A program made the translations under genes and the position numbers. Of a DNA stretch of 15,830 bases, positions 1 to 14,040 are shown in pieces. The DNA comes from a virus. Each line of letters begins with the position of its first letter. The first letter of the stretch is position 1. The DNA is taken from positions 1 through 15,830 of the IMG/VR virus record IMGVR_UViG_3300045988_115612. The stretch is one strand, 5' to 3'. A model generated the notes under the pieces. The model searched no databases, was not told the origin of the DNA, and saw nothing but the letters and a program-made list of their open reading frames with translations.

Positions 1-19
1 GACTGTGCTCTTCCGATCT
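1..19. other. Sequencing-adapter remnant (Illumina-type ...GTGCTCTTCCGATCT), not biological
   Basis: gactgtgctcttccgatct at 1-19 ends in the canonical adapter 3' end CTCTTCCGATCT. Its exact reverse complement is at 15812-15830. Confidence 0.85.
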
Positions 20-335
20 CCCACGTTGACATAAAATAAAACGATATTTAGAACATTTCCCCAATCACTTTACGCGACAAACTAAAAATAGTGAACGCGT
101 ATAAAATATTTTAAAAATACGCTTGACATTTCTATGTGCGCGTGCTATTATATAATTACAGAAAGGAAATAATAAGGAGGAAATGAAAAAATGATTAAAA
201 ATTTAGATTATTACTGGGAAGCAATCGTGAACATGATGGATGATGATATCCGCGAACGCGTAGCGTTTGAATTAGCGCCGTGCACCAACGAAGAATTTTT
301 AAATCGTTACTTAGAGCTTGCACCGGATTTCCAGA
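20..335. repeat. Left inverted terminal repeat (316 bp perfect; degenerate extension to ~377)
   Basis: Block-by-block reverse complementation shows 1-335 identical to 15496-15830. Mismatches then occur at 336, 337, 341, 352, 364, 365, 368 and 369, and similarity is lost after ~377. Confidence 0.95.
123..151 (+). promoter_or_regulatory. Sigma-A-type promoter inside left ITR
   Basis: TTGACA (123-128), 17-nt spacer, TATTAT (146-151), preceded by TG at 143-144 (extended -10). AT-rich inverted repeat gcgtat...atacgc (97-122) lies directly upstream. SD and ORF follow about 25 nt downstream. Confidence 0.7.
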
Positions 336-358
336 CTGTTTTGGATTCTGAGTTTTAA
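191..358 (+). CDS. ITR-encoded 55-aa acidic hypothetical protein (left copy)
   Basis: ATG at 191 lies 10 nt after AAGGAGG (174-180). Translation: MIKNLDYYWEAIVNMMDDDIRERVAFELAPCTNEEFLNRYLELAPDFQTVLDSEF, TAA at 356-358. Below the ORF-track length cutoff. A second copy sits in the right ITR. Confidence 0.7.
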   Translation: MIKNLDYYWEAIVNMMDDDIRERVAFELAPCTNEEFLNRYLELAPDFQTVLDSEF

Positions 359-371
359 GGAGGGCAATGAA

Positions 372-605
372 ATGAAACAAAAAGAATATGATAGACTTGT
401 AAATCGGTTAGCACAGCTTAAAGCTATACAAGCAAAATATGCGACATTACTGGCATGGAAACCCAGTTATATAAATGACGAGCGTGAACGCAAGTACGAA
501 CAAGCAGTAGACCGCATAAACTCTGAAATATGGGGTGTCATGGATAAACTTGATAACTGCGTTAACGATGACGAGACAGATAGTTTTATACCACATTTTG
601 AATAA
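372..605 (+). CDS. Hypothetical 77-aa early protein (predicted helical)
   Basis: Internal ATG of track ORF 318..605, chosen because AAGGAGG (357-363) lies 8 nt upstream. Begins MKQKEYDRLVNRL. The upstream extension overlaps the ITR ORF. Confidence 0.65.
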   Translation: MKQKEYDRLVNRLAQLKAIQAKYATLLAWKPSYINDERERKYEQAVDRINSEIWGVMDKLDNCVNDDETDSFIPHFE

Positions 606-628
606 GGAGCGGAAACCCGCTCCTTATT
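601..628. terminator. Hairpin terminator at the convergence of plus- and minus-strand transcription
   Basis: 12-bp stem aataaggagcgg / ccgctccttatt with 4-nt loop aaac, followed by a T-run on the plus strand. Lies between the stop at 605 (+) and the stop at 630 (-). The U-tract is weaker in the minus direction. Confidence 0.75.
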
Positions 629-629
629 T

Positions 630-1400
630 TTATTCGTGCTTTAGCTCTCCTTTCGCCAGCAGCACCACCAACTCCGTATTCTGTTCTGCCGTCCCGGTAT
701 ACTCTTCAATCCCGTTTGCCCTTGCGATCTCTTTCCGGTGCGCAAAACTGCTATCAATCCCAATCGTGTTCAGAGCAGCTGCCAGACCAATACCCGGGTA
801 GAATTTTTCAGTATCCATCTTTTTTGACATATCGAATTTTTTACCTCCGATCTTACTACTGTTAGTGTACTGCCATAACGCAGCACTTTTGGTATATTCA
901 TCTTCTTTTGTTGTATATCTTGCATACCATAACGGGAAGCCTTTCAGCTTGCTATGCAACAAGTGATTCAATAAATAATCCCTGTTTGCATAGTACCCGC
1001 ACTTATAACCGTAAAACTGCATAGTCTGGCAAAAGTTAGCAATCAGCGTACTTCTGGAAATACGCGTCAGGGTGTTCGTGTCATACCTTGACAACTTTTC
1101 TTCTGTGTCATATTCAAAATCACACCACACTCCCAGATTGATTTTATCTTTGTATGGTCTGATTGTCTGCTCAAATTTGATACAATTCGCATCGATCGTC
1201 CTACCAGAATGAATATACACAAACCAGTAAAAGCCAAGATCAAGACCGCGTTTTATGACTTCATTCGTGAAATATTTCATTCGTTCATCTTCTGTCACTC
1301 CGCTTCCCGCGCGAATAATAACACCAGTAACGCCTGCCTTGACAACTGTATCCCAGTCAACCGGATAATTCCACTTTGATACGTCAATGATTTTACTCAT
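630..1400 (-). CDS. Endolysin, GH25 muramidase with a short C-terminal putative wall-binding module
   Basis: GH25 hallmarks: IDVSKWN..VDW, GVIIRAGSG, GFYWF, DFEYD (D-x-E), LWYARY, WQYT. SD AAAGGAGA 7 nt upstream. Last gene of the late operon, after the holin. The C-terminal ~55 aa (IGIDSSFAHRKEIARANGIEEYTGTAEQNTELVVLL) is a separate module I cannot name. Confidence 0.85.
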   Translation of the reverse strand: MSKIIDVSKWNYPVDWDTVVKAGVTGVIIRAGSGVTEDERMKYFTNEVIKRGLDLGFYWFVYIHSGRTIDANCIKFEQTIRPYKDKINLGVWCDFEYDTEEKLSRYDTNTLTRISRSTLIANFCQTMQFYGYKCGYYANRDYLLNHLLHSKLKGFPLWYARYTTKEDEYTKSAALWQYTNSSKIGGKKFDMSKKMDTEKFYPGIGLAAALNTIGIDSSFAHRKEIARANGIEEYTGTAEQNTELVVLLAKGELKHE

Positions 1401-1608
1401 GTTCTGATCTCCTTTCTATTTCTTTTACACGCTGAGACAAGCCACTTACTTCTGTTTCAATTCGTATTAAGCGGTCATCCATGCTTGCATGCTTATCCAT
1501 GCGTTTCTCTAAAGCGTCCAAACGGTATTTAATTAACGAATTATTCATAACTGCGACTAGCAGCGCTGATGCCAAACTACAGGTAGCAGTTATAATAGAT
1601 TCTATCAT
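1393..1608 (-). CDS. Small membrane-anchored coiled-coil protein (possible lysis accessory or antiholin)
   Basis: 71 aa with an N-terminal hydrophobic helix (IITATCSLASALLVAVM), then heptad-like LDALEKRMDK...RIETEVSGLSQRVKEIE. Overlaps the holin stop (ATGA) and the endolysin start by 8 nt. Confidence 0.55.
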   Translation of the reverse strand: MIESIITATCSLASALLVAVMNNSLIKYRLDALEKRMDKHASMDDRLIRIETEVSGLSQRVKEIERRSEHE

Positions 1609-1868
1609 TTTTCCACCGCCTTTTTAATCTGCTTCGGAATCTGGTTGATTCCAATAGCAGCCAGACCGCTTGAAATACCAATAGCGAAAATGTCAATTGC
1701 GTTCCCTCCGCCGATATCGATACCGTACACAAGCGAAATAATAGAACAAAAAATTCCAATAAATACAGATACCAGCGGAATATATTCATCTGATACCAGC
1801 TTTGCACTTTTGACAACCTCCGAAGTACCGTAACAAATTATTGTAATTGCAATATAAGGCTCAATCAT
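1605..1868 (-). CDS. Holin (phi LC3 / SPP1-like class, about 3 TM segments)
   Basis: 87 aa with three hydrophobic segments and a charged C-terminus (KQIKKAVEK). Pattern IPLVSVFIGIF...GISSGLAAIGINQIPKQ is typical of this holin family. AAGGAGG 9 nt upstream. Sits just upstream of the endolysin. Confidence 0.8.
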   Translation of the reverse strand: MIEPYIAITIICYGTSEVVKSAKLVSDEYIPLVSVFIGIFCSIISLVYGIDIGGGNAIDIFAIGISSGLAAIGINQIPKQIKKAVEK

Positions 1869-1870
1869 TT

Positions 1871-2650
1871 TTAACTACCTCCTTTTATAAGTTTGTATAG
1901 GTTTATTCCGATTTTAAGATATTTAAAACCGTTTACGATAATAAGGCTTTCCGTTATATTTATTATCGGCGTTTTGTTAAAGAAAATTGGATTGATTAAC
2001 CTGTCCCCGTTTGACGGTAAAAACATGTCCTGTACTTTGAATAGATATTCCGGTGCTTCTGACACGATCGGAGGGTCAGGGTCTGGTGGTTCTGGTGGGT
2101 CTGGTGGCGGGTCTGGTTTCGGGTCGATGTCCTCCCCGTTATACAACTTTTGCCAAAAATACCATCCCATTTCTCCTCTGTTTGGCTGGTTTAGATTTTT
2201 CGGTCGCTCATAGTTCCGCAAAAACATGTCCGCTAACATTTTTATCATTGCTTCGACGCTCTCGCCTGTTTGCCATTGCGTAAATTCATAAAAGCTGTAA
2301 GGATACTTAGAGGTAGCCGCCCATTGTTTTTTGTTTGCAACCTCCCACTTAATCCGCTCTAGTTGTCCTGTCCCGCTGTCGTGTGCGTAACCGTTTTCAT
2401 CCAGCCAGCTGAAAAGCTTTGTCGCTGGTGTCCACTGTACAAGCCCAAAACCCAAGTCGGTATTCCCAGCATCCAGATTTTGCCAGATGCCCGGATTGAC
2501 ATGTGATTCTGTCCACATATTTCCCAACATCGCGCAAACTGCATAAGACGTCCATCTGCCTGTTACGGTGCTGCCCGCGAGGTAGTCATATACCTCACGG
2601 GCATTTTCCAACGCTTCGGCAAGTGTTAGCCACCTATTGCCGCTTATCAT
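1871..2650 (-). CDS. Tail-associated peptidoglycan hydrolase (phage tail lysozyme domain, phi29 gp13 N-domain-like)
   Basis: Motif MLGNMWTESHVNPGIWQ...GFGLVQWT is characteristic of the phage tail lysozyme family. Followed by a Pro/Asp linker (DPKPDPPPDPPEPPDPDPP) and a ~65-aa C-terminal domain. Start overlaps the upstream stop (ATGA). Confidence 0.75.
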   Translation of the reverse strand: MISGNRWLTLAEALENAREVYDYLAGSTVTGRWTSYAVCAMLGNMWTESHVNPGIWQNLDAGNTDLGFGLVQWTPATKLFSWLDENGYAHDSGTGQLERIKWEVANKKQWAATSKYPYSFYEFTQWQTGESVEAMIKMLADMFLRNYERPKNLNQPNRGEMGWYFWQKLYNGEDIDPKPDPPPDPPEPPDPDPPIVSEAPEYLFKVQDMFLPSNGDRLINPIFFNKTPIINITESLIIVNGFKYLKIGINLYKLIKGGS

Positions 2651-3405
2651 TGTGCAGGATTGACAGTGTACGTTAATTCGATGTCAAAACTTGAGTATGT
2701 CGGAACACCTGCACCACGATATAATCTAAAAGTATCCCCAGTTAATTTCTCTAAGTTAAAGGTAGCTGTTGTTCCGTTTGGAATAATAGTCAAGTCAGTC
2801 ACTCCCTCCACGGATACCCCGTTTTGGCATCGTGTAACGTTGGCAGACTTAAAGGTTAAATTCCCGTCATTTTTTTTATAAATGCAGCCTGTACCACCTG
2901 ATTCAGTGTTTCCAGCTGCTCCGCTCATACGAAACGTTACTTCTTCAGGCAATTTCGGCTTTTCTTCCAGAGCGGTCACTCTCTGACCAAGTTCATCCAG
3001 TGTCGTTTTGTTTCCGTCCGCTGTCTGCTTTGCTTTTGTTGCGTTCGCGCTGGCTGCGTTCGCAGCGTTTACAACATCGGTTGCGGCTGTCTGAGCAGCA
3101 GTTGCTTTCTGCTCTGCGCTGTTCGCTGCTTCCTGCGCTGCTGTCACGTATCCGGTCATGTCGTCCGCGGTTTCTTTCAGCTGCGCAACCTGTTTTTTGA
3201 CATCTTCGTGAACGGTTTTGATCTCTGTCTGTGCGCCTTTTACATTTTCCACATCGTTAACAGCTTCTTCCGCTGTCTGACTGACAGTAAATAAAGCACC
3301 GTCGATGATCTCCATATCGTTGTTATAATCCCCGAGAAAAGTTGGCTTGTCTGTGCCGATAAACTGAGATAATTTAAAATTGGCTGTTTTGTTTGTACTA
3401 CTCAT
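2647..3405 (-). CDS. Fibre protein: conserved N-terminus, Ala-rich coiled coil, C-terminal globular domain
   Basis: 252 aa. N-terminal NFKLSQFIGTDKPTFLGDYNNDMEIIDGAL is typical of phage fibre N-termini. Long A/Q/T-rich heptad region, then a beta-rich C-terminus. GGGAGG SD 7 nt upstream. Confidence 0.6.
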   Translation of the reverse strand: MSSTNKTANFKLSQFIGTDKPTFLGDYNNDMEIIDGALFTVSQTAEEAVNDVENVKGAQTEIKTVHEDVKKQVAQLKETADDMTGYVTAAQEAANSAEQKATAAQTAATDVVNAANAASANATKAKQTADGNKTTLDELGQRVTALEEKPKLPEEVTFRMSGAAGNTESGGTGCIYKKNDGNLTFKSANVTRCQNGVSVEGVTDLTIIPNGTTATFNLEKLTGDTFRLYRGAGVPTYSSFDIELTYTVNPAQ

Positions 3406-3420
3406 TGTTTTACCTCCCTT

Positions 3421-3867
3421 TTACGCATTTTCTAATGCTGCGATCCTTTCCTGCAAACTTGTGATCTTCCCAGCGTTCGCGCTGTTTGCATCGTTCGCAA
3501 TTTTTACCGCTTCTTCTGCTGCGGATACCAGACTTTTTGAATTGTCAATATCCGCGACTGCTTTCGCAGCTTTTGCTTCTGCTCCGCTTGCAACCTGAGT
3601 CAAAACATTCAGCGCGGGCATTACAGACAGCAATTTTCCCTGCGATAATGTAATGGTATTTTTTAATGTTATATTTTCTTCGTTCATTTTTGTGATCTCT
3701 GTCTGGACTGTGTTCATTTCGTTTTTTACACCGGATGTTTTACCTTTCAGCGCTTGCAAGGCTGCATCAATTTTTTTGTTGTTTTCGTTCCAGTCTCCCA
3801 TGATGTCAACAGCATCTTTTTTCTGGTACATTCCGAAATTAAAATAACGGGTATGACGTGTAAACAT
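3421..3867 (-). CDS. Short fibre paralogue (N-terminus and coiled coil only)
   Basis: ATG at 3867 lies 8 nt after GGAGG. The track's GTG at 3876 overlaps the SD itself. Shares FNFGMY..D..GDWNENNKKIDAAL and a SANA-containing coiled coil with the 252-aa neighbour. It ends where that protein continues into its C-terminal domain. Confidence 0.6.
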   Translation of the reverse strand: MFTRHTRYFNFGMYQKKDAVDIMGDWNENNKKIDAALQALKGKTSGVKNEMNTVQTEITKMNEENITLKNTITLSQGKLLSVMPALNVLTQVASGAEAKAAKAVADIDNSKSLVSAAEEAVKIANDANSANAGKITSLQERIAALENA

Positions 3868-3884
3868 TTTTTGCACCTCCTTTT

Positions 3885-5195
3885 TTAAATTGGTAATTCT
3901 TTTAATAGCACATTTGTGCTTCTGATTAAACCACGAATAGAAGAATAAGCGTAGCTCTCATATTCTTGCGCTGTTGGAATGTTAATTGTGTCTAGTATGT
4001 AGACCGTAGCTGATGGATGACCGTTAAAATAATAAATCCGGTCTAGCTCATTGATAACACTATAGTTTGCATTAGTTTCAACACTCAGCCACGCTTCCCA
4101 TTCGTTGTCATTCGTAACTTTAAACGGAAAAGTAATAGACTGTCTCCAATTAGTCGGAAAGCTGGTTTTGTTTGGCTTTTCGCCCGAGTTAATGCTTTTT
4201 ACTCCAATTTTAACAAAACCGTGCTTGCTTCTGCCAATAGTTCGCACTCCCAAGCCGTTGCCCACATTATAGGTATCGTAATAAGTCGCGTTTTCGGTAT
4301 CCCACCACAGCGCATCTTTATTTTTTGTTTTGATTGCCTGACAAGTTTCTGTCATCACGGAATCAAACTCCTGCGCTGTCAAGTGTAGTTCTGCATCCAC
4401 CTGCATCACTTCGTCCAACGCTCTTGCATGTGTGATTGCGTCCCCACTCACCGGACTGTTCACACTTGCATCAAAAACGCCGTACATTTTGTAATAACTT
4501 TCAGCATCAAATGCACCCGCGCGGATATACAATGTTTTAAAATCGTCACAGTCCTTGTCAAAAGCTGTAAACCAGTTGTCAAACTGCCCGCAATTGATCG
4601 CTCGCACTCTTAAAATGTCGTATACATTATTGACAGTGTTTCCAACTCTGTCCCGGTATCCGGTTGTAGGATCAAAAATCCGGAAACCATCTTCATTTAC
4701 TTCGTCAATTTCCAGACGAAGCTTTTCCAGCTGCTCTTCCACCCATTCTTTCAGACGCTGAACAGCAAAGTCTGTATACTGTTCCAGATACGCTTTTGTC
4801 TCGTCGATCTTACCATTCAGCTGCGCAACGTCTTTTTCATGCGTCAGCTTTACATTGTCCACATAATACCTTAACTCTGTTATTAAATCTTCCAGCCGTT
4901 TTACGTCTTTGGTATGCTCCGCCCAGTAGTAAGCGTCTTGAGTGTCAATGTAACTGTGCAAGGTTTCTACGGTCTGAGCGAGAGTTTTCAAAAGCTCTGC
5001 TTTTAATTCTGCTATTTTCGCGTCTGTATAGTTCTGGTAATTTGTCTCTAAGTCAGTCAAAAACTGAATGATCTGATTGATGTTATAAGCAATCTTCTGC
5101 ATCATTTCCAGCTGACTGATAGACGCATCCCATTCAGACGGCAATGACAGATAGGCATTATTAAAGCATAGCTTTTCCGGTAACTTTTTATCCAC
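3885..5195 (-). CDS. Tail appendage / receptor-binding protein (gp12 position)
   Basis: 436 aa. GTG start 8 nt after GGAGG. N-terminal ~170 aa coiled coil followed by a globular C-terminal region. Located directly after the lower collar gene, as the appendage gene is in phi29-type phages. Call rests on position and architecture only. Confidence 0.5.
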   Translation of the reverse strand: MDKKLPEKLCFNNAYLSLPSEWDASISQLEMMQKIAYNINQIIQFLTDLETNYQNYTDAKIAELKAELLKTLAQTVETLHSYIDTQDAYYWAEHTKDVKRLEDLITELRYYVDNVKLTHEKDVAQLNGKIDETKAYLEQYTDFAVQRLKEWVEEQLEKLRLEIDEVNEDGFRIFDPTTGYRDRVGNTVNNVYDILRVRAINCGQFDNWFTAFDKDCDDFKTLYIRAGAFDAESYYKMYGVFDASVNSPVSGDAITHARALDEVMQVDAELHLTAQEFDSVMTETCQAIKTKNKDALWWDTENATYYDTYNVGNGLGVRTIGRSKHGFVKIGVKSINSGEKPNKTSFPTNWRQSITFPFKVTNDNEWEAWLSVETNANYSVINELDRIYYFNGHPSATVYILDTINIPTAQEYESYAYSSIRGLIRSTNVLLKELPI

Positions 5196-5210
5196 CTCTT
5201 TTACCTCCTT

Positions 5211-5900
5211 TTAGTAGATTTTTAAGAAAAGAGTACGGGAAACTGTGTCGGAAAATTGCCCCACAACATCCATAAGCGTTTCTCGATATTTTAAAATCAA
5301 TTCCGCTTGCGGAACATTGTATCCGCTTTCCTGAAAGTGTTCTGAATACACCTCTTTTCCGTTTGAAGATGTCGTTCCGTTCCCGCTTCCCTGATCTACT
5401 GTAATTGTAGTTGCATAATCCGCATTTGTCAAGCGGTTTTCCGGTGTATCATCAAAAATATTTTTATTGTTGCTTTCGCTTGTGCTTTTTCCGCTTGCGT
5501 TTGTTTCTCTGTCACCATTCCGTGCACTTTCCCTGCTGTAGCTTTTCAATTTGTCCAGTTCCAACAAGCTTGATTCATAAAGTTTGTTGTACACTGGCAG
5601 CCAGCGCGAAACATTTTGATTAAATCTGAGAATAAAATATTCCGGTGTTTCGTACTCGATTTCCCGCATCATATTGTCAACGCAGAACTGTTGGAAAAAG
5701 GCGTTTTTAAATTCTTCGTTGAAAAAATTGTTTGTGTTATACAGCATTTTAGACTGCGCTTTTTCGATTCTTTCCATGACACTCATTTCATCTTCCAGCC
5801 GGATAAAAGCGTATCTTTTTTCTTCCTTTGGATGCAGCGGGTTCACGTCCTGCGAATAATGGTATATGATATTTCGTAATGTCGTAGTGTGGTTACTCAT
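5211..5900 (-). CDS. Lower collar protein (gp11-like)
   Basis: 229 aa. Segment FFQQFCVDNMMREIEYETPEYFILRFNQNVSRWLPVYNKLYES matches the F..REIG.ET..F....MP.YN.L.ES pattern of lower collar proteins as I remember it. Start overlaps the portal stop (ATGA). Confidence 0.65.
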   Translation of the reverse strand: MSNHTTTLRNIIYHYSQDVNPLHPKEEKRYAFIRLEDEMSVMERIEKAQSKMLYNTNNFFNEEFKNAFFQQFCVDNMMREIEYETPEYFILRFNQNVSRWLPVYNKLYESSLLELDKLKSYSRESARNGDRETNASGKSTSESNNKNIFDDTPENRLTNADYATTITVDQGSGNGTTSSNGKEVYSEHFQESGYNVPQAELILKYRETLMDVVGQFSDTVSRTLFLKIY

Positions 5901-6871
5901 TTTTTTATATTCCCCTCCGCGTTATTCATAACGATTTCAGTTCCACCGCCTTTTGAATCCATGTTGCCGATTCCGGCGATTTCCTGCGTGCCTAAACTTA
6001 AGCGGTTACAATTAGGATTAAAGTCTACACTAATTCCAGTCAAGTCCGGGAACAGTCTTTTAATTTTTTTCAGCGCTTCTCTGCGCATAAACAGCCCGCC
6101 ATCCCGCAGTGCAAGAATGTGTTCTTCGTTTGCTTCTGCTTCGGACTCTACCAGACGTTCTTTTTTGTAAATGTTAAGATTGTTATAACCTAGACGTGTA
6201 AGGTATTCGCTCCAGATGCAATTCTTTTCCTTTTCCAATTGTTCCAAAATGCACGGAACAGAAAAATCTAACACGCCCTTTGTATCAGCAGAAAATCCGT
6301 CTGTATCGTCCACCAAAACAAAAGGTTTCCCGTCCTCCGCTTCGTTGATCGCGTGTTTTGCGCTGTTTACGTTATCCTTATTTACAAAAATTCCTTTCGG
6401 TTTCATCTGCAATCGTGTGTTCACGTCTTTCGCCTTTTCAATCATAGTGAATTTTTTAGCGAAATAGTAAATTTCTGGCATGAACGGTCTAAACGTCTGA
6501 TCGTTAAAAATGATAGCGCTGTCTTTTTCGGTTGCCCTGTGGTGGTATCCGCTGGCGGTATTGATATAGCGGGTTGTCGGTATGTTATAAATGTTAAAGC
6601 TGCCCGCTTTTGCACAAGGTAAACACAGATACCCCATCACCTCATCCTTAAAAAAACAAACTGCGCCGTTAAAAATTAGTGCCTGTTCCAGTGCGCGGGC
6701 GCTCACTGTGTCTGGCAATCCTGACCATGTGTAGCGATTGATTGCTAACAAATACAGCTGATTTACAAAGTGATCGAACGTCACGCGCTCATCAAACTTT
6801 CGAACGATCTTTCCATCATAACCGACACCGCACAATCCTAGCGGGTCGGTCGAAAAACCAGTTCTTCCCAT
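5897..6871 (-). CDS. Portal / upper collar connector (phi29 gp10-like)
   Basis: 324 aa. [31 protein letters not shown] parallels phi29 gp10 [48 protein letters not shown] parallels KKERMVTDEVSSNDEQI. AAGGAGG 8 nt upstream. Confidence 0.85.
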   Translation of the reverse strand: [324 protein letters not shown]

Positions 6872-6886
6872 TGTTTCTTCCTCCTT

Positions 6887-8557
6887 TTACTTTGCATTGT
6901 TTCCGTATGTTCCAACATTGTTTTTGTCATGCCACAACGTAAAACCGTTTATAAACATATTGCGCAATGGCTGCAAAAATTCATTCGGAATATTGCCATA
7001 AACATTTACATTGTTGCACTTTATATAATTGTAGCGCGGTCTGCTATTTAAGTTCGGTACGCCGAAACGACTAACCTTGTACCCGTAAACATCAAAAAAC
7101 TGCTCGATCTTTTCCGCAAACTCAGGTTTTACTGTCCACCATCTGTAGAGGATTTCCAGCTTTTTTGAAGCAATAAACGTTGCAAGTCCTCCGCCACTTG
7201 CACCCGTAAGGCTAACGTTTGTTTGAATCTGTCCGATACGCTGCCTGTCCCTTTCGGAACTTTGAAGCTCAGACCGCACGTTTTTGTATGCGTCTATTCC
7301 GGTGGAAAGCACATTCAATGGATCTCCTGTAAATACAGCTTGCGCCACGTTTCCGACAGTGTCCCAAAAAATATTCGATCTGTTTTGTGCGTGCACGAGA
7401 GTGTTTGTAGCTTCTGTCTGCGCGGTCTGTAGTGGGTAGGTGTTATTTTGCACCGGGAAGCAAGGGAAACCGCTTATATTGTTCGCGTTCAATAAAAAAT
7501 CATCTTCCGCACCACAATAGTTTTCTGTGTATAGGTATAAATTCGGTGCGGGAATAAGTGTTCCAACTACTTTTACAGAGGGAATACCCTCCGGCAAAAA
7601 TTCCGGTTTTAATACAGTTCTCGCTCCATTCGGCAGCACAACCTCGATAAAAGAAAATTGAGACGTGTACATTTTTTTATTTTTATATGCCGGGAATTTC
7701 AATAGCCAGTTTGCAAGTACACCGTCTACAGGAATTACAGCCGGAGCAGAACTATCTGCAATTACACCTACCGAAAATCCCATTGCTGACTGTTCCACGG
7801 TTACTGCTCCACCTATATTATAAGATGTCACGGCGTAAATTGCCAATATGCTCTGCGACACCCACGGAAACGCGGAGAGTGAATTCATTACGGATGAAAT
7901 GGAACTAGTTCCCCGTCTAGGGCTTACTAAGTACGCTCTAGCACCGGACGGCAAACCAGCATACATTCCGCCTTTTGCACCTGTAACTTTAGGCTCTTCC
8001 AGTGTTCCTGGGTCGGCTAGAATGTCTATTGCGGAAACAATAACAAATTGATAATCTGTCTCTTCATCCAATTTGTCAAGATCAAACGTTTCTTCATGCG
8101 CGATAACATAATCGCCCACGTCAACAGGTTCTTGCACCGTGTTTGTTTTAAAATCATCGTTTTCAACATGCTCCCTGCTGATGTCACAGTCCCTTATAAC
8201 CATGTCAAACAAAAACGTCTGGTATACGTCTATTTCAAAATTCAATAACGACGTTTCCGGGTTGATATAAATAACCTGTGTTACAAAAGCATAATACCAT
8301 TTCCCGCTTGCCTGATTTTTAAAACATAGGTAACACGCGTTACCGATCTCTTCCGCGTTTACCGGAACTTTTACGCCACGATGCTCGCGGATATATTTAA
8401 AATCATTAAAAACACGGATTGCTTTTGAACGGAAATAATTATATTGTTCGTTCTTATCTGCGAAAGACAGCTGCCGGATCTGTGAAGCGTCAAGAGGAAC
8501 GTCTGCGCATATCATCAATTCATTCGATTGCATTGCGTATACTGTTTCTAGTGCCAC
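6887..8557 (-). CDS. Tail knob / distal tube protein (phi29 gp9-like)
   Basis: 556 aa. GKWYYAFVTQVIYINPETSLLNFEIDVYQTFLFDM parallels phi29 gp9 [35 protein letters not shown]. GTG start 7 nt after AAGGAGG. Confidence 0.85.
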   Translation of the reverse strand: MALETVYAMQSNELMICADVPLDASQIRQLSFADKNEQYNYFRSKAIRVFNDFKYIREHRGVKVPVNAEEIGNACYLCFKNQASGKWYYAFVTQVIYINPETSLLNFEIDVYQTFLFDMVIRDCDISREHVENDDFKTNTVQEPVDVGDYVIAHEETFDLDKLDEETDYQFVIVSAIDILADPGTLEEPKVTGAKGGMYAGLPSGARAYLVSPRRGTSSISSVMNSLSAFPWVSQSILAIYAVTSYNIGGAVTVEQSAMGFSVGVIADSSAPAVIPVDGVLANWLLKFPAYKNKKMYTSQFSFIEVVLPNGARTVLKPEFLPEGIPSVKVVGTLIPAPNLYLYTENYCGAEDDFLLNANNISGFPCFPVQNNTYPLQTAQTEATNTLVHAQNRSNIFWDTVGNVAQAVFTGDPLNVLSTGIDAYKNVRSELQSSERDRQRIGQIQTNVSLTGASGGGLATFIASKKLEILYRWWTVKPEFAEKIEQFFDVYGYKVSRFGVPNLNSRPRYNYIKCNNVNVYGNIPNEFLQPLRNMFINGFTLWHDKNNVGTYGNNAK

Positions 8558-8574
8558 TTTTAAACCTCCTTTTG

Positions 8575-8604
8575 AAAAAAGGGAACGTTTCCGTTCCCTT
8601 TTTA
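8575..8604 (-). terminator. Intrinsic terminator/attenuator downstream of the capsid gene
   Basis: aaaaaa-gggaacg-tttc-cgttccc-ttttt. On the minus-strand RNA this is a GC-rich stem followed by a U-run, 9 nt after the capsid stop. The tail knob SD follows directly. Confidence 0.8.
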
Positions 8605-8612
8605 TAAAATCT

Positions 8613-9899
8613 TTAGCCTGTGATCGTCACAGCCTTTGTTGTCTGTACATTCGTCTGCCCTGCTACAACTGCTTTCAGCGTCAATGTTTTGGCTGTTTCG
8701 TTGGGGCTGACTTCGATTGTTGCGCTCTTACTATCACTTGCAACTATCCTTGTGCTGGTGGCTTCCGCTCCCTCTAACGAGAAGATAACGCCGCCGTTTA
8801 CAGGTGTGGTAGCTGCTGTGTATTTACTCTGTGCGCCTTTTGCGATCGACGCTTCTCCGGTGATCGTCACAGCTGTGTACGTGCTGACAGCTTCCGTAGT
8901 AAGGGCAACCGCGTTATGAAAAGGACTGGTAAAATAAATCTGCCATACGTGTAACCAGTAATTCCAGTACAGCTTTTCTCCGTTAAAAAATTCGGATGTT
9001 TCAAGCAACTGGTCGTAGATATTCATCCATTCATCATCCGCAACAATTGCCAAAATTTCCGGATGTCCGGGAATTTCTGGAATTACGGTGATTCTACCTA
9101 AAATCTGCGCTTCGTCCATATGAAACGCATACGCAAGCGCCCGCACTGACGTGACAGCGTCCGCTTTTGGTGTAATAAATACCCGCTGGCTTTCCCTAGC
9201 AGTTGTATTTAAAACACCTGCTGCATTGTAATTTTCAGATGGAAACAGTAAATTGTTTGACACAATACGCATGGTAGTCAAAAAATCCTGTGCGGTGTCT
9301 GCGTCAACAGGGTCGACCGTGTGTACAAGCTTTACAAAACCGTTATCAAGCGCGGATGTGATCGCACCCATTGCGTAAAGCATTTCAGATACTTCATTTC
9401 CGGTGTACATGGAATCAATCACACGGTCAACGAAATTTCCAAGTCCCTGTGCGCTGTAAAATGCACTACGCAGCATTTCCCGGTTCACAGTCTTTTTGAA
9501 AAACTCTTCCCGGTTTCGGTTCATAAAAGCAACCGCGATATCGGGCTTTTCCTGCTTTAACATTGCCCACGGGTCAGTATCAGAACAAAAAGAATGTGCG
9601 GCTGCGATCTTTACCCAAACGGACTCAATCGTTTCCCCGTATTCCAGCATACCTCTTTTTGCAAAAGCGAACGGGGAAGTGAAATACATTTTGTCGATTT
9701 TCTGCAGCGCCCAGACGTTTACAAGCTGGTTCATGAATCTGTTCATGATTGGCTGGTACTGCATCATGACCTGCCCAAACTCTTTAATGTTTGTGTTTTT
9801 AACTTCGGGGAGTAAGCCCTCCCATTCTGTGCCTTTTAAGCTGTCTTTAAAGCTCTGTAATGCTAAAGGCACATTTTTCAAAACTCCTTTTACTGCCAT
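8613..9899 (-). CDS. Major capsid protein with C-terminal Ig-like (BIG2-type) domain (phi29 gp8-like architecture)
   Basis: 428 aa. Follows a small acidic scaffold gene. AAGGAGG 6 nt upstream and its own terminator. The C-terminal ~85 aa (TITGEASIAKGAQSKYTA...TLTLKAVVAGQTNVQTTKAVTITG) looks like a bacterial Ig-like group 2 domain, as in phi29 gp8. Confidence 0.8.
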   Translation of the reverse strand: MAVKGVLKNVPLALQSFKDSLKGTEWEGLLPEVKNTNIKEFGQVMMQYQPIMNRFMNQLVNVWALQKIDKMYFTSPFAFAKRGMLEYGETIESVWVKIAAAHSFCSDTDPWAMLKQEKPDIAVAFMNRNREEFFKKTVNREMLRSAFYSAQGLGNFVDRVIDSMYTGNEVSEMLYAMGAITSALDNGFVKLVHTVDPVDADTAQDFLTTMRIVSNNLLFPSENYNAAGVLNTTARESQRVFITPKADAVTSVRALAYAFHMDEAQILGRITVIPEIPGHPEILAIVADDEWMNIYDQLLETSEFFNGEKLYWNYWLHVWQIYFTSPFHNAVALTTEAVSTYTAVTITGEASIAKGAQSKYTAATTPVNGGVIFSLEGAEATSTRIVASDSKSATIEVSPNETAKTLTLKAVVAGQTNVQTTKAVTITG

Positions 9900-9911
9900 T
9901 TTTTACCTCCT

Positions 9912-10169
9912 TTACAGATCGAGAAAATCTTCTGTTTTGATTTCCTCTTTTTCCTCCACTTCTTCTTTGTCCTTTTCTTTTTCCGAACCGGACAGAAAAG
10001 CGTCTGCATACTGTTTTTTCACGTCTGCTACTTCTGTTTCCAGACGGTCATTTTCGTCTGCAATTTCCGCAATTAAATTTAAAATTGCGGATTCATCCAG
10101 CGCCCCCTCTTCTGGTGCATCAATTCGCGCGATCATGCGCGCTTTCGAAATTAAATCATCCCGTTTCAT
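9912..10169 (-). CDS. Scaffolding protein (gp7-like)
   Basis: Internal ATG at 10169 (MKRDDLISKARMIA...) preceded by GGGAGAAAGGA. 85 aa, helical, very acidic C-terminus (EKEKDKEEVEEKEEIKTEDFLDL). Immediately upstream of the capsid gene. The track's longer N-terminus runs through the promoter leader. Confidence 0.65.
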   Translation of the reverse strand: MKRDDLISKARMIARIDAPEEGALDESAILNLIAEIADENDRLETEVADVKKQYADAFLSGSEKEKDKEEVEEKEEIKTEDFLDL

Positions 10170-10293
10170 TTTTTTCCTTTCTCCCGTGTGCGGTTTTATA
10201 AGTAAGGGAAAACACGCGCATAATCCGATGCGCCACACCCGCAAGCCGTTTCACACGGGGATTTCCTGCTTGTGCTGTAAGTTCTCCCTCTAT
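10170..10293 (-). other. ~124-nt structured untranslated RNA (late-operon leader; prohead-RNA candidate)
   Basis: No credible ORF. On the minus-strand RNA, 8-bp helix CCCGUGUG (10259-10252) pairs with CACACGGG (10190-10183) and extends by CGG/CCG. It encloses hairpin GCGCAU-cggauu-AUGCGC (10233-10216). Lies directly downstream of a perfect consensus promoter. Confidence 0.4.
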
Positions 10294-10299
10294 GGTTTC

Positions 10300-10328
10300 A
10301 TTATAGCTTGCTTTTGTATCAATGTCAA
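10300..10328 (-). promoter_or_regulatory. Perfect consensus sigma-A promoter (TTGACA-17-TATAAT)
   Basis: Minus strand reads TTGACA (10328-10323), 17 nt ttgatacaaaagcaagc, TATAAT (10305-10300). The -35 box contains the ATPase TGA stop (10327-10325). Confidence 0.8.
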
Positions 10329-11374
10329 CCCCTAATTCCCAAAAAATCCATACCAATATTTTTACATTCTTGAGATTCGAAACGGAAATTTCCAACATTG
10401 AACTGCTTTCTACATATCGACACTTGCACGGAAATTGTTCCTGTTAAGCATGTATTTTCGTCATGATCTTTTGTCGAAATTGCGAAAAGTCTATGAAAAT
10501 TTCTATCTGCTTTTAAAGAAATATAATACCTTCCACTTTGTAACTCCCATAAACCATAAAAATTACCATTATGTTTTATTGTTAAAAGATACCGCGCACC
10601 AGCAAGACTTTGTTTTTCAATAAATTGTACATTATCCAGCAAAAAAATATTATCAATACTATAATCAAAATACGTAGAATCGGAAAAAGCTCGATAAAAT
10701 CCGCTTTGTTTTTTTTCCTCCGCTACATATTTATTTCTATAAACCTCCATCACCCACCCATGTCCTTTCATAAAATGGATTCCAGCTTTCCATCTTTTAT
10801 GAATCCCTAAAGCTACAAAATACGGATTCAGCAATGAAACCATGTTACTAGCTAAAAAATATGTAAGTTTTCGTGTTAATTGTTCATATCCTCTTCCAAT
10901 TGCATCATTTATTGCAAGAAATTTGTTGATCTCGTCTGCGCAATATTCCTCAGCTTCGCTTTGAAATTCATCTAAAAAAATATTGTCTGCATCATTAAAA
11001 AAAGTAGATATTCTTTTTACCTTATCAATCATACTAAGTGCAATAACGTATCCGCAAGATATTTCAAATTCTTCAGTTTTTATGAAAACCTCTGCAAACT
11101 TACCCGAACCGGATGAAATAGAATATAAATCGGCGCTAGGAAATTTATTTTTTATATCCGCCCAAAATGCCGGGATATAACTGTTTAGTTCGTCCTTTTT
11201 TCTAACTAGACAGATAAATTTTTTACTTTTATGCAAAAATTCATTGATTAAATATTCTTTTACGGCAAAAGATTTTCCTCCCCCTTTTGTGCCAGTTATG
11301 ATATAAATGTCTGGTGTATTCCCGTCAAGGTCTTTTGTTTTTAAAATATTGTCTAGTCTGTAATGCTTCTCCAT
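10325..11374 (-). CDS. DNA packaging (encapsidation) ATPase, phi29 gp16-like
   Basis: 349 aa. Walker A GTKGGGKS, Walker B IFLDEF. ASNMVSLLNPYF parallels gp16 LSNAVSVVNPYF. DNVQFIEKQS parallels DNQVFIEKRS. AAGGAGG 4 nt upstream. Confidence 0.9.
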   Translation of the reverse strand: MEKHYRLDNILKTKDLDGNTPDIYIITGTKGGGKSFAVKEYLINEFLHKSKKFICLVRKKDELNSYIPAFWADIKNKFPSADLYSISSGSGKFAEVFIKTEEFEISCGYVIALSMIDKVKRISTFFNDADNIFLDEFQSEAEEYCADEINKFLAINDAIGRGYEQLTRKLTYFLASNMVSLLNPYFVALGIHKRWKAGIHFMKGHGWVMEVYRNKYVAEEKKQSGFYRAFSDSTYFDYSIDNIFLLDNVQFIEKQSLAGARYLLTIKHNGNFYGLWELQSGRYYISLKADRNFHRLFAISTKDHDENTCLTGTISVQVSICRKQFNVGNFRFESQECKNIGMDFLGIRG

Positions 11375-11391
11375 GCTACCTCCTTTCCAAT

Positions 11392-11419
11392 AAAAAGAGG
11401 AACTGCTGTTCCTCTTTTT
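11392..11419 (-). terminator. Intrinsic terminator after the early replication genes
   Basis: aaaaagaggaac-tgct-gttcctcttttt: a 12-bp stem with flanking A and U runs, 11 nt after the SSB stop. The ATPase SD starts 5 nt after it. Confidence 0.8.
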
Positions 11420-11430
11420 ATGCCGGGGTG

Positions 11431-11766
11431 TTAAACAAGTACCAGCGTTAAAAATTCGTTTTTATTGTTGGATTTCCGGTACTCAGCTCTTAATGTAAGC
11501 GGATTGTCTGCGGTCGGCGCTCCAACAAACTGTTCAAGCGTCTGAATACAATCTGCTACGGTGGGTGACAGTGTGGTAATGCAGCGACCGTCTGCCAGTA
11601 CAAAACCAGTGCAAACGCACTCGTCCCCGGTGGCTTTTCTAGTGGTTTCCCACTGTGCCACCCCAACAACTGTCATATCTTCCCCGACGTGATCGGTCAA
11701 TCCCTCGCTGTTCTGGGAAAGGCTGTACAGCATTTTCTTATCTGTTACGGTGTTAATTAAACTCAT
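11431..11766 (-). CDS. Single-stranded DNA-binding protein (phi29 gp5-like)
   Basis: Internal ATG at 11766, 8 nt after AAGGAG; 111 aa. CVCTGFVLADGRCITTLSPTVADCIQTLEQFV...RKSNNKNEFLTLVLV parallels phi29 p5 [31 protein letters not shown]...GTSSKGNVFFSLQLSL (recalled from memory). Confidence 0.6.
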   Translation of the reverse strand: MSLINTVTDKKMLYSLSQNSEGLTDHVGEDMTVVGVAQWETTRKATGDECVCTGFVLADGRCITTLSPTVADCIQTLEQFVGAPTADNPLTLRAEYRKSNNKNEFLTLVLV

Positions 11767-11782
11767 GGTAAATTCTCCTTTT

Positions 11783-12082
11783 TTATTCTGCTTTTTCTGC
11801 TTCGTCAACTGTTACGACTTCGGAATACTTCAGAAAATCTTCAACGCTTAAACGTCTCAGCTCTTCTCTGTATTCTGTGTTCACGCAAAACAACCCTTTT
11901 GCATCCGGGTATGCCTTGTTAATCTCCCTTGTGATTGCCGTGTTAGAGCTTACTCTAACCGGAACAATAATATCAGGAAATTCAGTTACCTGTCCATCTG
12001 CAAACTGTGCTACCTTAATAACTGTAGTAGTCACAGTTCTTGTGAAAAACCGCGTTCTTGCGTCTCCGTCTCCTTTTCTCAT
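11783..12082 (-). CDS. Histone-like dsDNA-binding protein (phi29 p6-like)
   Basis: 99 aa. RTVTTTVIKVAQFADGQVTEFPD and VNTEYREELRRLSVEDFLKYSEVV with an acidic tail resemble phi29 p6 REITKTTVNVAKMVMVDGEVQVEQLP ... EVYELPVEKFLEVATV as I recall it. Adjacent to the SSB. AAAGGAG 8 nt upstream. Confidence 0.5.
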   Translation of the reverse strand: MRKGDGDARTRFFTRTVTTTVIKVAQFADGQVTEFPDIIVPVRVSSNTAITREINKAYPDAKGLFCVNTEYREELRRLSVEDFLKYSEVVTVDEAEKAE

Positions 12083-12128
12083 TTTTACTGCTCCTTTCTT
12101 TTTTGTGTTTTATTTTTATTACATTATT

Positions 12129-12157
12129 ATAGTATCACATATTGAGCGAAACGTCAA
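12129..12157 (-). promoter_or_regulatory. Candidate sigma-A promoter for the p6-like/SSB genes
   Basis: Minus strand reads TTGACG (12157-12152), 17 nt, TG-a-TACTAT (12134-12129). A perfect TATAAT lies 3 nt further on but at 20-nt spacing. The -35 contains the polymerase TGA stop. Confidence 0.5.
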
Positions 12158-14004
12158 CATCTTTTTGCACGTAAAGTATAAAAATCTTCTATTAGCACCA
12201 TACCACCACTTATATATTTTGGTTTTAATTTTCCGCCCACTTTTAAGCCGATCTTAAAATCCGTTATCGGATGCGTTGCCAAAAATAATTTTTTTGATTT
12301 TTCGGGCATCCCCGCGCATTTTATTTCCCAGTGTCCGGATACCTTTTTCCCGTCCTCTTTTTGCACAAACTCTGCATAAGTCTTTTGTCTTATAAATATA
12401 GCGCTAGACCAATCACTTTCCCGCTTCCAGCACAATAGATCTGTAGCGTGTTCTTTTATCATTTTCACTGGTTTCCCATCGTCCAGCATATGTATAGAAT
12501 CTGTATCACTGTATACAAAATTGTCATAATTCGCTTGCGCGTGCGTTATAGTAAAATATCGCGCATATGCTGTCACCGCTGCCCCTGCTGCAATGTATAA
12601 CGTGTCTTTTTCATGCTCCGGGTGCAATTCAAAACCTATGGAGTCTGTTTCCGGGTCGATGAATGGCTCACGGTAAGAACTATTGTCATTTATAGCAAGC
12701 CGACCGTATAAGTTATTCAGGAACAATTTTGCTTCCGTGCGTTCTCCCTTGTCTTTGGTGGTCATTTTAATTTTCATGTAGTGGTTTATATAAGTGTCAA
12801 ACAGACCTATTGCGCCATGAAAATAGCAGCCATCTAGAATATCTAAGTCATACACTTCATAATGCTCTAATAAAAGAAGATAGTCGGTCATAAAAAGAAT
12901 TAGCTCTGGTTTTGCTTCCTCTGTTTGTCCCTCTTTGTTTGTAAAATATCTGTAATATTTTCCGCGATAATAGATATCAGATGTTTCCAGCCATTGCGTA
13001 GAGTTATATCTATAATCTCCTTTTATTTGTACTGTTGGCAAGTAACCGTCCTTTAACTTAAACCGACAACGCAGCCGCACATAAAACGGATAAACGTTTG
13101 TCTCTAAGCATTTATAGGGGATTTTTTTTTCAAAAAATATTGGCTTGCCTGTTGGATAATAGTTACCACTTTTACTGTGCATAACACTAGGATATAAAGA
13201 ATTAACATCAAACGTCATGCCGTTCTGCTTAATGTGTTTTCTTTGTTTGTATTTGTAATAGCAATAACCACCTTTATAAGCTTTTCTTATATATTCATCC
13301 ACATTATCACTCCCTCGATCGTATTTTATCAACAATATGTCTTTTAAGTTCGGAAAAGCTGTCTTGAAGTCCATAGCATCAAATTTATTTTTGAATTCAT
13401 CCATACAGCACGAACCTATAGTTAATTTATCATGTCCGCTTTTTATCATAACTTCCAGTGCTTCCTTTAGCACATAGATATCGTTAATTATATAGGCGTA
13501 TTCCTCTGGTGTTATTTCACAGTTTGCGTGACGCAATCCTATATATTCCATTTCCAGTTTTCGATGCTGCGTATTAAATGCAGAACCAATTTGTGCAAGT
13601 GTCATAGGCATAAGTTTTACACTGTCCCTAAACTCTATCACTGTGTCAAATTTCGGTTTGACTGTGACGGTATACCATTTATTTGTATCTGATATTAAGG
13701 CTTTGAACTCTTTTGCGTTCATGTCTTTATTGCGTGCATTATTCCATGTATAACCGTTCTTTAATAGCCAATACACAATAAAAGCTCCATCAAAACGCAG
13801 ATTGTGAAAATAGCAGAGAACGTTTTTGTTCAAGTTAAAAATATCGTTCAAAAAATCTTCTATGTTACCGCGCAAGTGCGGCTGCTCTGTAAATAATTCT
13901 ATCCATGCAGCGCTCCAAACTTCTGTCGATGTCTGCCCGGCATATACAGTTGTTTCAAAATCTGCTGCTATTATAACGGGTTTTTTCGCTGTTTTTTTTG
14001 ACAT
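12154..14004 (-). CDS. Protein-primed family B DNA polymerase (phi29 gp2-like)
   Basis: 616 aa. ExoI DFETT, ExoII HNLRFDGAFIVYWL, ExoIII YIINDIYVLKEAL, motif A DVNSLYPSVM, motif B KLFLNNLYGRLA, motif C YSDTDSIH, RQKTYAE. All are near-identical to the phi29 polymerase motifs. Confidence 0.95.
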   Translation of the reverse strand: MSKKTAKKPVIIAADFETTVYAGQTSTEVWSAAWIELFTEQPHLRGNIEDFLNDIFNLNKNVLCYFHNLRFDGAFIVYWLLKNGYTWNNARNKDMNAKEFKALISDTNKWYTVTVKPKFDTVIEFRDSVKLMPMTLAQIGSAFNTQHRKLEMEYIGLRHANCEITPEEYAYIINDIYVLKEALEVMIKSGHDKLTIGSCCMDEFKNKFDAMDFKTAFPNLKDILLIKYDRGSDNVDEYIRKAYKGGYCYYKYKQRKHIKQNGMTFDVNSLYPSVMHSKSGNYYPTGKPIFFEKKIPYKCLETNVYPFYVRLRCRFKLKDGYLPTVQIKGDYRYNSTQWLETSDIYYRGKYYRYFTNKEGQTEEAKPELILFMTDYLLLLEHYEVYDLDILDGCYFHGAIGLFDTYINHYMKIKMTTKDKGERTEAKLFLNNLYGRLAINDNSSYREPFIDPETDSIGFELHPEHEKDTLYIAAGAAVTAYARYFTITHAQANYDNFVYSDTDSIHMLDDGKPVKMIKEHATDLLCWKRESDWSSAIFIRQKTYAEFVQKEDGKKVSGHWEIKCAGMPEKSKKLFLATHPITDFKIGLKVGGKLKPKYISGGMVLIEDFYTLRAKRC

Positions 14005-14018
14005 TGTGAAACCTCTCG

Positions 14019-14040
14019 AAATGTTTCACGTGAAACATTT
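14019..14040. repeat. Perfect 22-nt palindrome at the terminal-protein/polymerase junction
   Basis: aaatgtttcac|gtgaaacattt with a CACGTG core. Overlaps the terminal-protein stop codon (14039-14041). A third copy of the heptamer (gtgaaac, 14006-14012) lies between the polymerase SD and its ATG. Confidence 0.9.

Follow-up and report, generated by a model that had tools for sequence, protein, structure and literature searches.

The two ends of the 15,830-nt virus record IMGVR_UViG_3300045988_115612 (IMG/VR; positions 1 to 15,830, hereafter the window) form a perfect inverted terminal repeat (ITR) of 316 nt that carries, in addition to a putative replication origin, an inward promoter and a 55-codon open reading frame (ORF) whose product is, by sequence comparison, a member of the AcrIC5 anti-CRISPR family; the gene is referred to here as acr. 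Judged by its gene content, the window is a phi29-like podophage genome, protein-primed and of gut origin. The explanation that we favor, and consider probable, is that each terminus of the genome comprises an origin, an early promoter and a slot for cargo genes, that acr occupies this slot at both ends, and that the ITR has been lengthened by end-to-end recombination.

Anatomy of the terminal repeats

To measure the ITR, the window was aligned without gaps to its reverse complement. The outermost 19 nt at each end (positions 1-19 and 15812-15830; GACTGTGCTCTTCCGATCT), which we take to be a remnant of the 3′ part of an Illumina adapter and not phage DNA, were removed, leaving a complete linear genome of 15,792 bp at positions 20-15811. 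The features of the two ends are as follows.

20 to 335, no strand: left perfect ITR, 316 nt (self reverse-complement comparison; the identity spans 1-335 if the adapter is included)
15496 to 15811, no strand: right perfect ITR, 316 nt (same comparison)
336 to 377, mirrored at 15454-15495, no strand: imperfect inward continuation of the repeat (42 nt, 8 mismatches), comprising the 3′ end of acr and the Shine-Dalgarno (SD) sequence and start of the next gene
20 to 67, approximate extent, mirrored at the right end, no strand: putative core of the terminal origin, starting with 5′-CCC
123 to 151, plus strand: predicted early promoter, TTGACA-17-TATTAT with a TG-extended −10 element, start expected near 158
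15680 to 15708, minus strand: its mirror, start expected near 15673
175 to 180, plus strand: SD sequence of acr (AGGAGG), in a 5′ untranslated region (5′UTR) that is conserved whichever gene follows
191 to 358, plus strand: left copy of acr, AcrIC5 family, 55 aa, Thr49 (matches to Pfam PF22147 and to 7YHR)
15473 to 15640, minus strand: right copy of acr, AcrIC5 family, 55 aa, Asn49, at the position usual for acr in the clade

A reading of the sequence alone, made before this analysis, had described a perfect 316-bp ITR holding a promoter, an SD sequence and a complete 55-codon ORF, with identity up to codon 48, then eight mismatches, then loss of similarity, and with unrelated genes of 77 aa (left) and 80 aa (right) following at the two ends; the present analysis agrees with this description throughout. 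That reading had recognised neither the adapter remnant nor the membership of the ORF in the AcrIC5 family. Codons 1-48 of acr are perfectly identical between the ends, and the first mismatch falls in codon 49. The mismatches lie at positions 336, 337, 341, 352, 364, 365, 368 and 369, and identity beyond 377 is at chance level. The 3′ end of acr (336-358) holds 4 mismatches in 23 nt, two of which are synonymous single-base changes, and the two protein copies differ solely at residue 49 (T/N). A perfect inverted repeat of 316 nt lying exactly at both termini cannot be due to chance. The same reading had seen a graded boundary extending through the SD sequence and the ATG-AAA of the next gene. 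The acr tail is indeed homologous between the ends, but the similarity past the stop codon can be explained by shared translation signals alone; with 4 of 8 bases matching outside the SD sequence and ATG-AAA, it was judged uninformative as evidence of homology.

The repeat in independent assemblies

The second copy of the ITR might have been generated by the assembler, through reuse of a terminal node or a fold-back, a possibility that the sequence-only reading had itself raised. De Bruijn assemblers collapse inverted repeats, so perfect identity within a contig is weak evidence by itself, and the contigs of several relatives have one end truncated inside the ITR. However, both junctions between the ITR and unique sequence occur in short low-coverage ENA contigs from two other samples: one (L155) equals window positions 144-670 at 100% identity, covering the ITR, its boundary, the following 77-aa gene (orf77) and the terminator behind it, and the other (L156) matches 15734-15228 at 99.4% from the ITR into the 80-aa gene (orf80), its three mismatches all lying within its first 40 nt. 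In addition, the adapter is joined to an identical CCCACG terminus at both ends of the window, and its fusion to one and the same base points to a physical DNA terminus; the independent IMG/VR contigs of relatives begin with CCCACG or with TCT followed by CCCACG. Different ITR boundaries are seen in five further assemblies, and two assemblies show plainly divergent ends. The two copies of acr also disagree in their final seven codons, a difference that would not arise from duplication of an assembly node. The ITR is thus real and no artefact, and an origin of its second copy in the assembly is extremely improbable.

Repeat length and cargo among relatives

Close relatives are genomes with a polymerase 95-97% identical and a capsid protein 91-95% identical to those of the window. 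A comparison of ITR length and boundary among them, as the sequence-only reading had proposed, gave perfect ITRs of between about 46 and about 582 nt. The list below contains all genomes for which both ends were assembled, followed by three in which one end is truncated by assembly.

Window: perfect ITR 316 nt; acr at both ends
L119: perfect ITR 341 nt; acr at both ends
L123: perfect ITR about 279 nt; acr at both ends
L157/L159 (a single phage, the two overlapping by 4,460 nt at 100%): perfect ITR about 46 nt; different acr alleles at the two ends
L116: perfect ITR about 158 nt; acr confined to the polymerase end, with orf105 at the endolysin end
L117: perfect ITR 48 nt; acr at the polymerase end only
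L125: perfect ITR about 582 nt; no acr, a 67-aa coiled-coil gene in the ITR
L122 (one end truncated): endolysin end with acr, polymerase end with a truncated copy of it
L121 and L124 (one end truncated): polymerase end with acr; other end beginning with orf82 or orf105

Among the relatives with both ends assembled, only the first ~46-48 nt are perfectly repeated without exception. Every sufficiently assembled relative end keeps ~150 nt of origin and promoter, the promoter lying ~100 nt from the terminus; across 15 aligned ends the first ~48 nt are almost invariant and the region at 50-100 nt varies between genomes. The genes behind the promoter also vary and include acr, a DNA methyltransferase and small genes of unknown function (orf105, orf95 and orf59), and a homolog of orf77, a left-end gene in the window, is found at the polymerase end of L117 with 78% DNA identity. 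The commonest acr allele (P0034) occurs in 51 collection blocks, in 40 of which the longest contig is 10-20 kb, and is the first gene of the polymerase end in all 10 places shown, which come from ten different runs. The polymerase end is therefore the usual site of acr, and the copy at the endolysin end is a derived state.

A 226-aa DNA methyltransferase (phrog_757, E=1.6e-65) directly follows acr in L121 (351-1031), in L122 (112-807) and in the P0010 lineage (L233-L237), and is probably anti-restriction cargo in the same slot. The other cargo ORFs of the relatives received no assignment from Pfam or PHROG.

A sister clade (52% polymerase identity; terminus CCCTGGGGGTCGCGGCCCC) has the same layout, with a TTGCAT-17-TATAAT promoter (TG) ~70 nt from both ends, and its ITRs are 45, about 146, about 147 and 647 nt long. 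The longest of these, in L163, contains two complete genes and a third that is truncated at the boundary (48 of 83 aa), and its sequence reads as a clear footprint of one end copied onto the other. In a more distant clade of 13-14.6 kb genomes, the ITRs are mostly 42-66 nt, with a few of 85-141 nt.

Homogenisation of the ends

When ITR polymorphism was compared between ends and between isolates, the ITRs proved to be perfect within genomes and at most 90.5% identical to that of the window between genomes. The variable positions of the 50-100 nt region and of the promoter spacer are identical at the two ends in five genomes and differ between genomes. Identity within genomes combined with divergence between them indicates concerted evolution.

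In the window, the acr tails (336-358) are as divergent as acr alleles from separate genomes are, and each of them is similar to alleles carried by relatives. A perfect tract that gives way to ordinary allelic divergence is best read, from these alignments, as ending at a recombination or conversion breakpoint, here at acr codon 48/49. Among the relatives with nearly identical polymerases, the breakpoints fall at about 46, 48, 158, 279, 316, 341 and 582 nt. The genomes form a graded series, being unconverted in L157/L159, whose ends are 80% identical over about 355 nt, partly converted in the window and L123, fully converted in L119, and converted past the first gene in L125 and L163; such a series is in keeping with repeated events and not with a single duplication.

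A simpler account would be that the long ITR arose by one recent duplication of one end onto the other without continuing homogenisation, the mismatch zone being the place where the copied segment meets unrelated sequence. A single end-replacement suffices for any one genome, and the 647-nt ITR of L163, with its truncated gene, looks like one such event. The 42-nt zone of the window, however, is homologous, because it continues the same gene with allelic-level divergence, and acr must therefore have been present at both ends before the perfect tract arose. Moreover, the breakpoints differ in nearly every relative despite polymerases that are 95-97% identical, and a 50-100 nt region that is identical within and different between five genomes requires repeated events. 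A single duplication is thus quite unlikely. The ongoing homogenisation that the sequence-only reading had preferred to a one-off duplication is supported by the genome-specific perfect ITRs, by the varied breakpoints, and by the unlike acr alleles of L157/L159.

The gene in the repeat

The 55-aa product scores 42.5 bits against Pfam PF22147 (AcrIC5), compared with a gathering cutoff of 27 (E=7e-11, residues 8-42), and this family is annotated on 51 of 51 database homologs of the ORF. The only match by sequence in the PDB is 7YHR (AcrIC5), with E=0.17 for the single sequence and E=0.0044 for a profile of 35 homologs. An AlphaFold (AF2) model built from the homolog alignment has four helices and a mean confidence score (pLDDT) of 94.3, and its top Foldseek match in the PDB is again 7YHR (probability 0.66; TM scores 0.57 and 0.54; root mean square deviation 2.8 Å; 32% identity over 40 columns), with a weak E-value of 1.3, as is expected for a helical protein of 55 aa. 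The composition is strongly acidic, with 13 D/E and 4 K/R residues, a trait in line with the DNA mimicry proposed for this family. Among eight acr alleles, the variable sites are distributed 11/7/34 over the three codon positions and the synonymous and nonsynonymous codon differences number 323 and 136; the excess at third positions and of synonymous changes indicates that acr is a real gene under purifying selection. On this evidence the ORF belongs to the AcrIC5 family by sequence, and an anti-CRISPR activity, together with its target, would be expected by homology.

AcrIC5, which blocks the binding of target DNA, has orthologs among the Firmicutes and Actinobacteria; the version from Pseudomonas inhibits the type I-C system of Eggerthella lenta as well (PMC7913775). 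It has been predicted to occlude the site of Cas8c that binds the protospacer adjacent motif (PAM), and its acidity has been described (bioRxiv 10.1101/2025.06.06.658234). A homolog from a Bifidobacterium prophage inhibits type I-C in experiments (PMC10651486). In IMG/VR, 238 loci carry homologs of the window ORF, mostly at internal positions in phages of roughly 30-60 kb, and 29 loci were found in bacterial genomes, mainly of gut Clostridia (Acetatifactor, Subdoligranulum, Lactonifactor, Lachnospiraceae and Oscillospiraceae). At several of the bacterial or prophage loci the next gene is AP2-type-like (zinc-ribbon-like CxxC motifs, judged by eye); an AP2 gene beside acrIC5 loci has been described (bioRxiv 10.1101/2023.05.22.541795). 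No acr homolog was found in the annotated phi29-like phages of the GenBank phage collection.

Two further occurrences were observed. A 110-kb IMG/VR contig (L004) carries an acr homolog of 87% identity at 10001-10195 and, ~1 kb downstream at 11224-11370, a homolog of the 55-aa gene that stands first in the cassette of the sister clade (motif VKV.GGY..MT...Y..WR.QK), a pair that suggests a pool of small early genes among phages of gut Firmicutes. In addition, an unannotated stretch of a Microviridae sp. genome from pig faeces (MG945373.1, 3811-3909) matches acr by tblastn (51.5% over residues 8-40), so that AcrIC5-like proteins may reach single-stranded DNA phages.

Several observations weigh against a transfer of function from the characterised proteins. 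The identity to AcrIC5 over the 40 aligned columns is low; Pseudomonas AcrIC5 lacks the invariant ELAPC motif of the window clade, which leaves room for a different target; and neither cassette yielded an aca-like regulator in Pfam and PHROG searches or in a fold search with orf122, the last gene at the right end. The cassette might then be real and the 55-aa protein serve another early function, either as a DNA mimic directed at some other host factor or as an accessory of replication or entry. A precedent exists in phi29 itself, whose 56-aa early protein p56 is an acidic DNA mimic with a different target, uracil-DNA glycosylase. On the other side, the Pfam score exceeds the curated gathering threshold, 7YHR is both the sole sequence match and the top fold match, and acr is dispensable and swappable among relatives, with a methyltransferase alongside it in some, which is the behaviour of anti-defence cargo and not of a core function. 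Divergent Gram-positive homologs, moreover, inhibit type I-C (PMC10651486). A different early function is therefore unlikely, and we retain the assignment of acr as a probable anti-CRISPR gene.

Terminal promoters and transcription units

Of the 12 hexamer positions of the terminal promoter, 11 match the consensus, and no other site at either end is better. Across the 15 aligned ends of relatives, the −35 and −10 elements and the 5′UTR are essentially invariant and the promoter spacer is variable, the exception being one end of L125, which aligns differently at −10; the AGGAGG SD sequence is present at every one of these ends. Invariant hexamers, 5′UTR and SD sequence flanking or enclosing a variable spacer are the footprint of a functional promoter. 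From its quality and position, we infer a strong sigma-A-type promoter with immediate-early timing. The TTGACA that recurs at 26-31 was weighed as a possible outermost promoter and rejected; relatives have TCGACA at this place, and the corresponding −10 element is poor. The remaining features of the two terminal units are listed below.

372 to 605, plus strand: orf77, 77 aa, predicted coiled coil, second and last gene of the left unit (from sequence)
600 to 629, plus strand: intrinsic terminator with a 13-bp stem closing the left unit, back-to-back with the end of the endolysin gene
15217 to 15459, minus strand: orf80, 80 aa, second gene of the right unit (from sequence)
15126 to 15203, minus strand: hydrophobic 25-aa ORF (MNEETLIVVIIAISLFAGFLTWEDK) between orf80 and orf122, read from the sequence
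14755 to 15123, minus strand: orf122, last gene of the right unit, a putative early gene restricted to the clade according to its homolog clusters
14729 to 14752, minus strand: intrinsic terminator closing the right unit (from sequence)

The left unit thus runs from the promoter through acr and orf77 to a terminator, and the right unit from the promoter through acr, orf80, the 25-aa ORF and orf122 to another. The suggestion that each end fires an identical inward unit holds for the promoter, the 5′UTR and the first cistron; further downstream the units differ, and each has its own terminator. Past the right terminator, a separate TTGTAT-17-TATAAT promoter (TG) precedes the putative terminal-protein and polymerase operon. 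No Pfam or PHROG match was obtained for orf77, orf80 or orf122. The homologs of orf122 form 92 clusters, and in nearly all of these the longest contig is below 17 kb. A role of orf122 as a regulator resembling phi29 p4 or Aca was considered and dropped, since its confident model (pLDDT 92.8) gave no meaningful match in the PDB or to a DNA-binding fold. A 36-aa hydrophobic ORF in the early operon of the sister clade resembles the 25-aa ORF of the window.

The terminal promoters could instead serve replication, for example with transcription opening the origin, the ORF being incidental. In favor of this, promoter and origin are within ~100 nt of each other at both ends in two clades, irrespective of the cargo. 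However, each end that is assembled through the promoter continues with a conserved 5′UTR and SD sequence and then with a protein-coding gene under purifying selection, and roles in replication and in expression can coexist. An exclusive role in replication is accordingly very unlikely, and expression of the cargo remains the preferred function of these promoters.

Proposed mechanism

In the model that we favor, the terminus would consist of a replication origin of ~48 nt, an inward-pointing promoter at ~100 nt, and a slot that takes small accessory genes. On entry of the genome, the host RNA polymerase would fire the terminal promoters, and the first cistron would yield an acidic inhibitor of the AcrIC5 type before interference can act; by homology, this product would bind Cascade, probably of type I-C, and block its binding to target DNA. 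Lying ~170 nt inside each terminus and under the strongest promoter, acr would encode the earliest protein to be made, irrespective of the end that enters, and its presence at both ends would double the gene dosage. The length of the ITR would stem from recombination between ends that share their first gene, and not from any need of the origin for 316 nt; the same recombination would maintain the identical tract and shift it. [quoted passage not shown] Either route would make the sequence from terminus to breakpoint identical and leave the last seven codons of acr at ordinary allelic divergence.

Some observations tell against parts of this model. The perfect identity seen in a single de Bruijn assembly could partly be due to repeat collapse, a concern that is weakened because L117 and L157/L159 show that assemblers resolve divergent ends. 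Early timing is deduced from the quality and position of the promoter. In most relatives acr is found at the polymerase end only, and its presence at both ends is a minority, derived state. Finally, the polarity of packaging and ejection is fixed in phi29; if this also applies to the window phage, the gain from having either end enter first would be void and only the dosage would remain.

A broader proposal, which we offer tentatively and with less than even confidence, is that the genome ends of this group of gut picoviruses act as mobile platforms for the expression of anti-defence genes, each with an origin, a strong early promoter and an exchangeable gene slot, in which recombination between ends, driven by protein-primed replication, copies a counter-defence gene from end to end, doubles its dose, and frees its expression from entry polarity. 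If so, ITR length would be a readout of recent selection for anti-defence and not a fixed feature of replication.

Comparison with known systems

Like phi29 and other phages of the Salasmaviridae/Picovirinae type, the window has a small linear genome and a protein-primed family-B polymerase encoded beside a putative terminal-protein gene, and it shares with this group a gp16-type ATPase, a phi29-type single-stranded DNA-binding protein (SSB), a connector, a capsid protein, terminal base repetition and early promoters near the ends. It differs from them in having a 316-bp ITR with a promoter and a whole gene, in carrying almost all of its genes on one strand, and in its terminus, which is CCC and not AAA. 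The pneumococcal Cp-1 group consists of protein-primed podophages with ITRs of a few hundred bp, and thus resembles the window in both replication and ITR length; no report of a complete gene or an anti-defence gene in Cp-1-group ITRs was found in the literature searched. Rudiviruses and poxviruses have long ITRs with expressed genes, and their genes for anti-defence or host interaction collect near variable termini. The window is similar in its gene-bearing ITRs and variable terminal regions, but the genomes of these viruses are much larger, have hairpin ends and belong to unrelated lineages, whereas the window is protein-primed. Counter-defence genes are also placed on the first DNA to enter in T7 (Ocr), in the first-step-transfer terminal repeat of T5 and in the leading regions of plasmids; these systems have a fixed entry polarity or direct repeats, whereas the gene of the window is mirrored by an inverted repeat.

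Among characterised protein-primed phages, the ITRs measure 6-16 bp in the Bacillus phi29-like phages (PMC6266182; PMC4974454) and 25-30 bp in the picoviruses of C. perfringens (PMC3362512). The ITR of the rudivirus SIRV2 is 1.6 kb (bioRxiv 10.1101/2021.11.18.469202). In PRD1 and adenovirus, non-identical ends have been proposed to be restored by annealing of the ITRs into a panhandle (PMC11886824, citing Savilahti and Bamford, 1993; Wang et al., 1991). The window clade resembles PRD1 (Tectiviridae) and adenovirus in its protein-primed linear genome, and an end-restoring process of the same kind may operate in it; their ITRs, however, are ~100 bp and non-coding, whereas the repeated tract of the window runs through a gene and varies in length among natural isolates. 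The acr product is small, helical and strongly acidic like AcrIC5 (PF22147; 7YHR), but unlike the AcrIC5 prophage loci it has no adjacent aca or AP2 regulator, and it contains the ELAPC motif of its subfamily. The concept of a counter-defence gene on the first-entering DNA behind a strong early promoter has been set out previously (PMC12455610).

Gene-bearing ITRs, anti-defence genes in terminal or leading regions, the restoration of ITR homology and the AcrIC5 family are therefore all known. By contrast, a search of the annotated phage collection and the literature found neither a phi29-like phage with an ITR holding a promoter and a complete gene, here an anti-CRISPR homolog, nor a natural series in which an ITR boundary moves through cargo genes. 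The ITRs of protein-primed phages are usually seen as short origins; those of the window clade and its sister clade also carry a predicted immediate-early promoter and can absorb whole genes. As the absorbed gene is an anti-CRISPR homolog, the dynamics of the genome ends would be tied to the arms race with host immunity. The dozens of near-identical genomes that differ in ITR breakpoint offer a natural system for the study of end homogenisation, a process still described as lacking direct evidence in protein-primed linear replicons (PMC11886824). More than 60 near-complete genomes of the clade are contained in public assemblies. The arrangement of the ends also suggests a rule for the search for anti-defence genes in gut phages, in which the first genes behind terminal promoters are inspected and the small cargo proteins are taken as candidates.

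Genome content, host and physical ends

The assignment of the window to the phi29-like phages is based on Pfam matches (PF03175, PF05894 and PF17427) and on PHROG families for the polymerase, terminase, connector, tail and capsid. The genes placed here are as follows.

12154 to 14004, minus strand: protein-primed family-B DNA polymerase (Pfam and PHROG)
14039 to 14665, minus strand: candidate terminal protein, basic, 208 aa, just upstream of the polymerase gene like phi29 gene 3

The other genes encode phi29-type SSB and double-stranded DNA-binding proteins, a gp16-type packaging ATPase, the major capsid protein, tail proteins, the upper and lower collar proteins, a holin and a GH25 endolysin; everything is on the minus strand except the two genes of the left cassette. 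The polymerase is 52% identical to that of a human faecal “Bacteriophage sp.” (MT835904), 45% to those of the Clostridium symbiosum phages CS229P1-3 and 34% to that of phi29, and the C. symbiosum phages are, by polymerase, the nearest cultured relatives. The host is probably a member of the Clostridia. A whole-genome megablast search against GenBank phages gave no match at the DNA level. Both ends open with 5′-CCC, a terminal base repetition that would permit the sliding-back required in protein-primed replication (PMC4974454; PMC6266182).

The candidate terminal protein has no family match in Pfam or PHROG. Its putative gene contains a 39-nt direct repeat (14367-14405 and 14415-14453, 95% identical) that encodes the basic motif YKSKRRK(E/A)KKKR twice, and the length of the protein among relatives (192-208 aa) suggests a varying copy number of this motif.

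An Rfam scan found no known RNA in the ITR and no packaging RNA (pRNA) anywhere in the window. A candidate pRNA gene may nevertheless lie at 10200-10327 on the minus strand, where a consensus TTGACA-17-TATAAT promoter at the end of the gp16-like ATPase gene is followed, just before a scaffold-like ORF, by a conserved predicted fold of ~90 nt with a three-way junction. The fold has a z-score of −2.3 and no Rfam match, and in 10 relatives 3 of its 32 predicted pairs show compensatory changes.

Adapter sequence is also left on the deposited ends of L124, L164, L194 and L208 (TruSeq-type) and of L102/L176 (Nextera-type), and the adapter seen in the window recurs on contig ends of other clades. Such leftover adapter in public assemblies contaminates the deposited sequences, yet it marks the true termini of linear phages.

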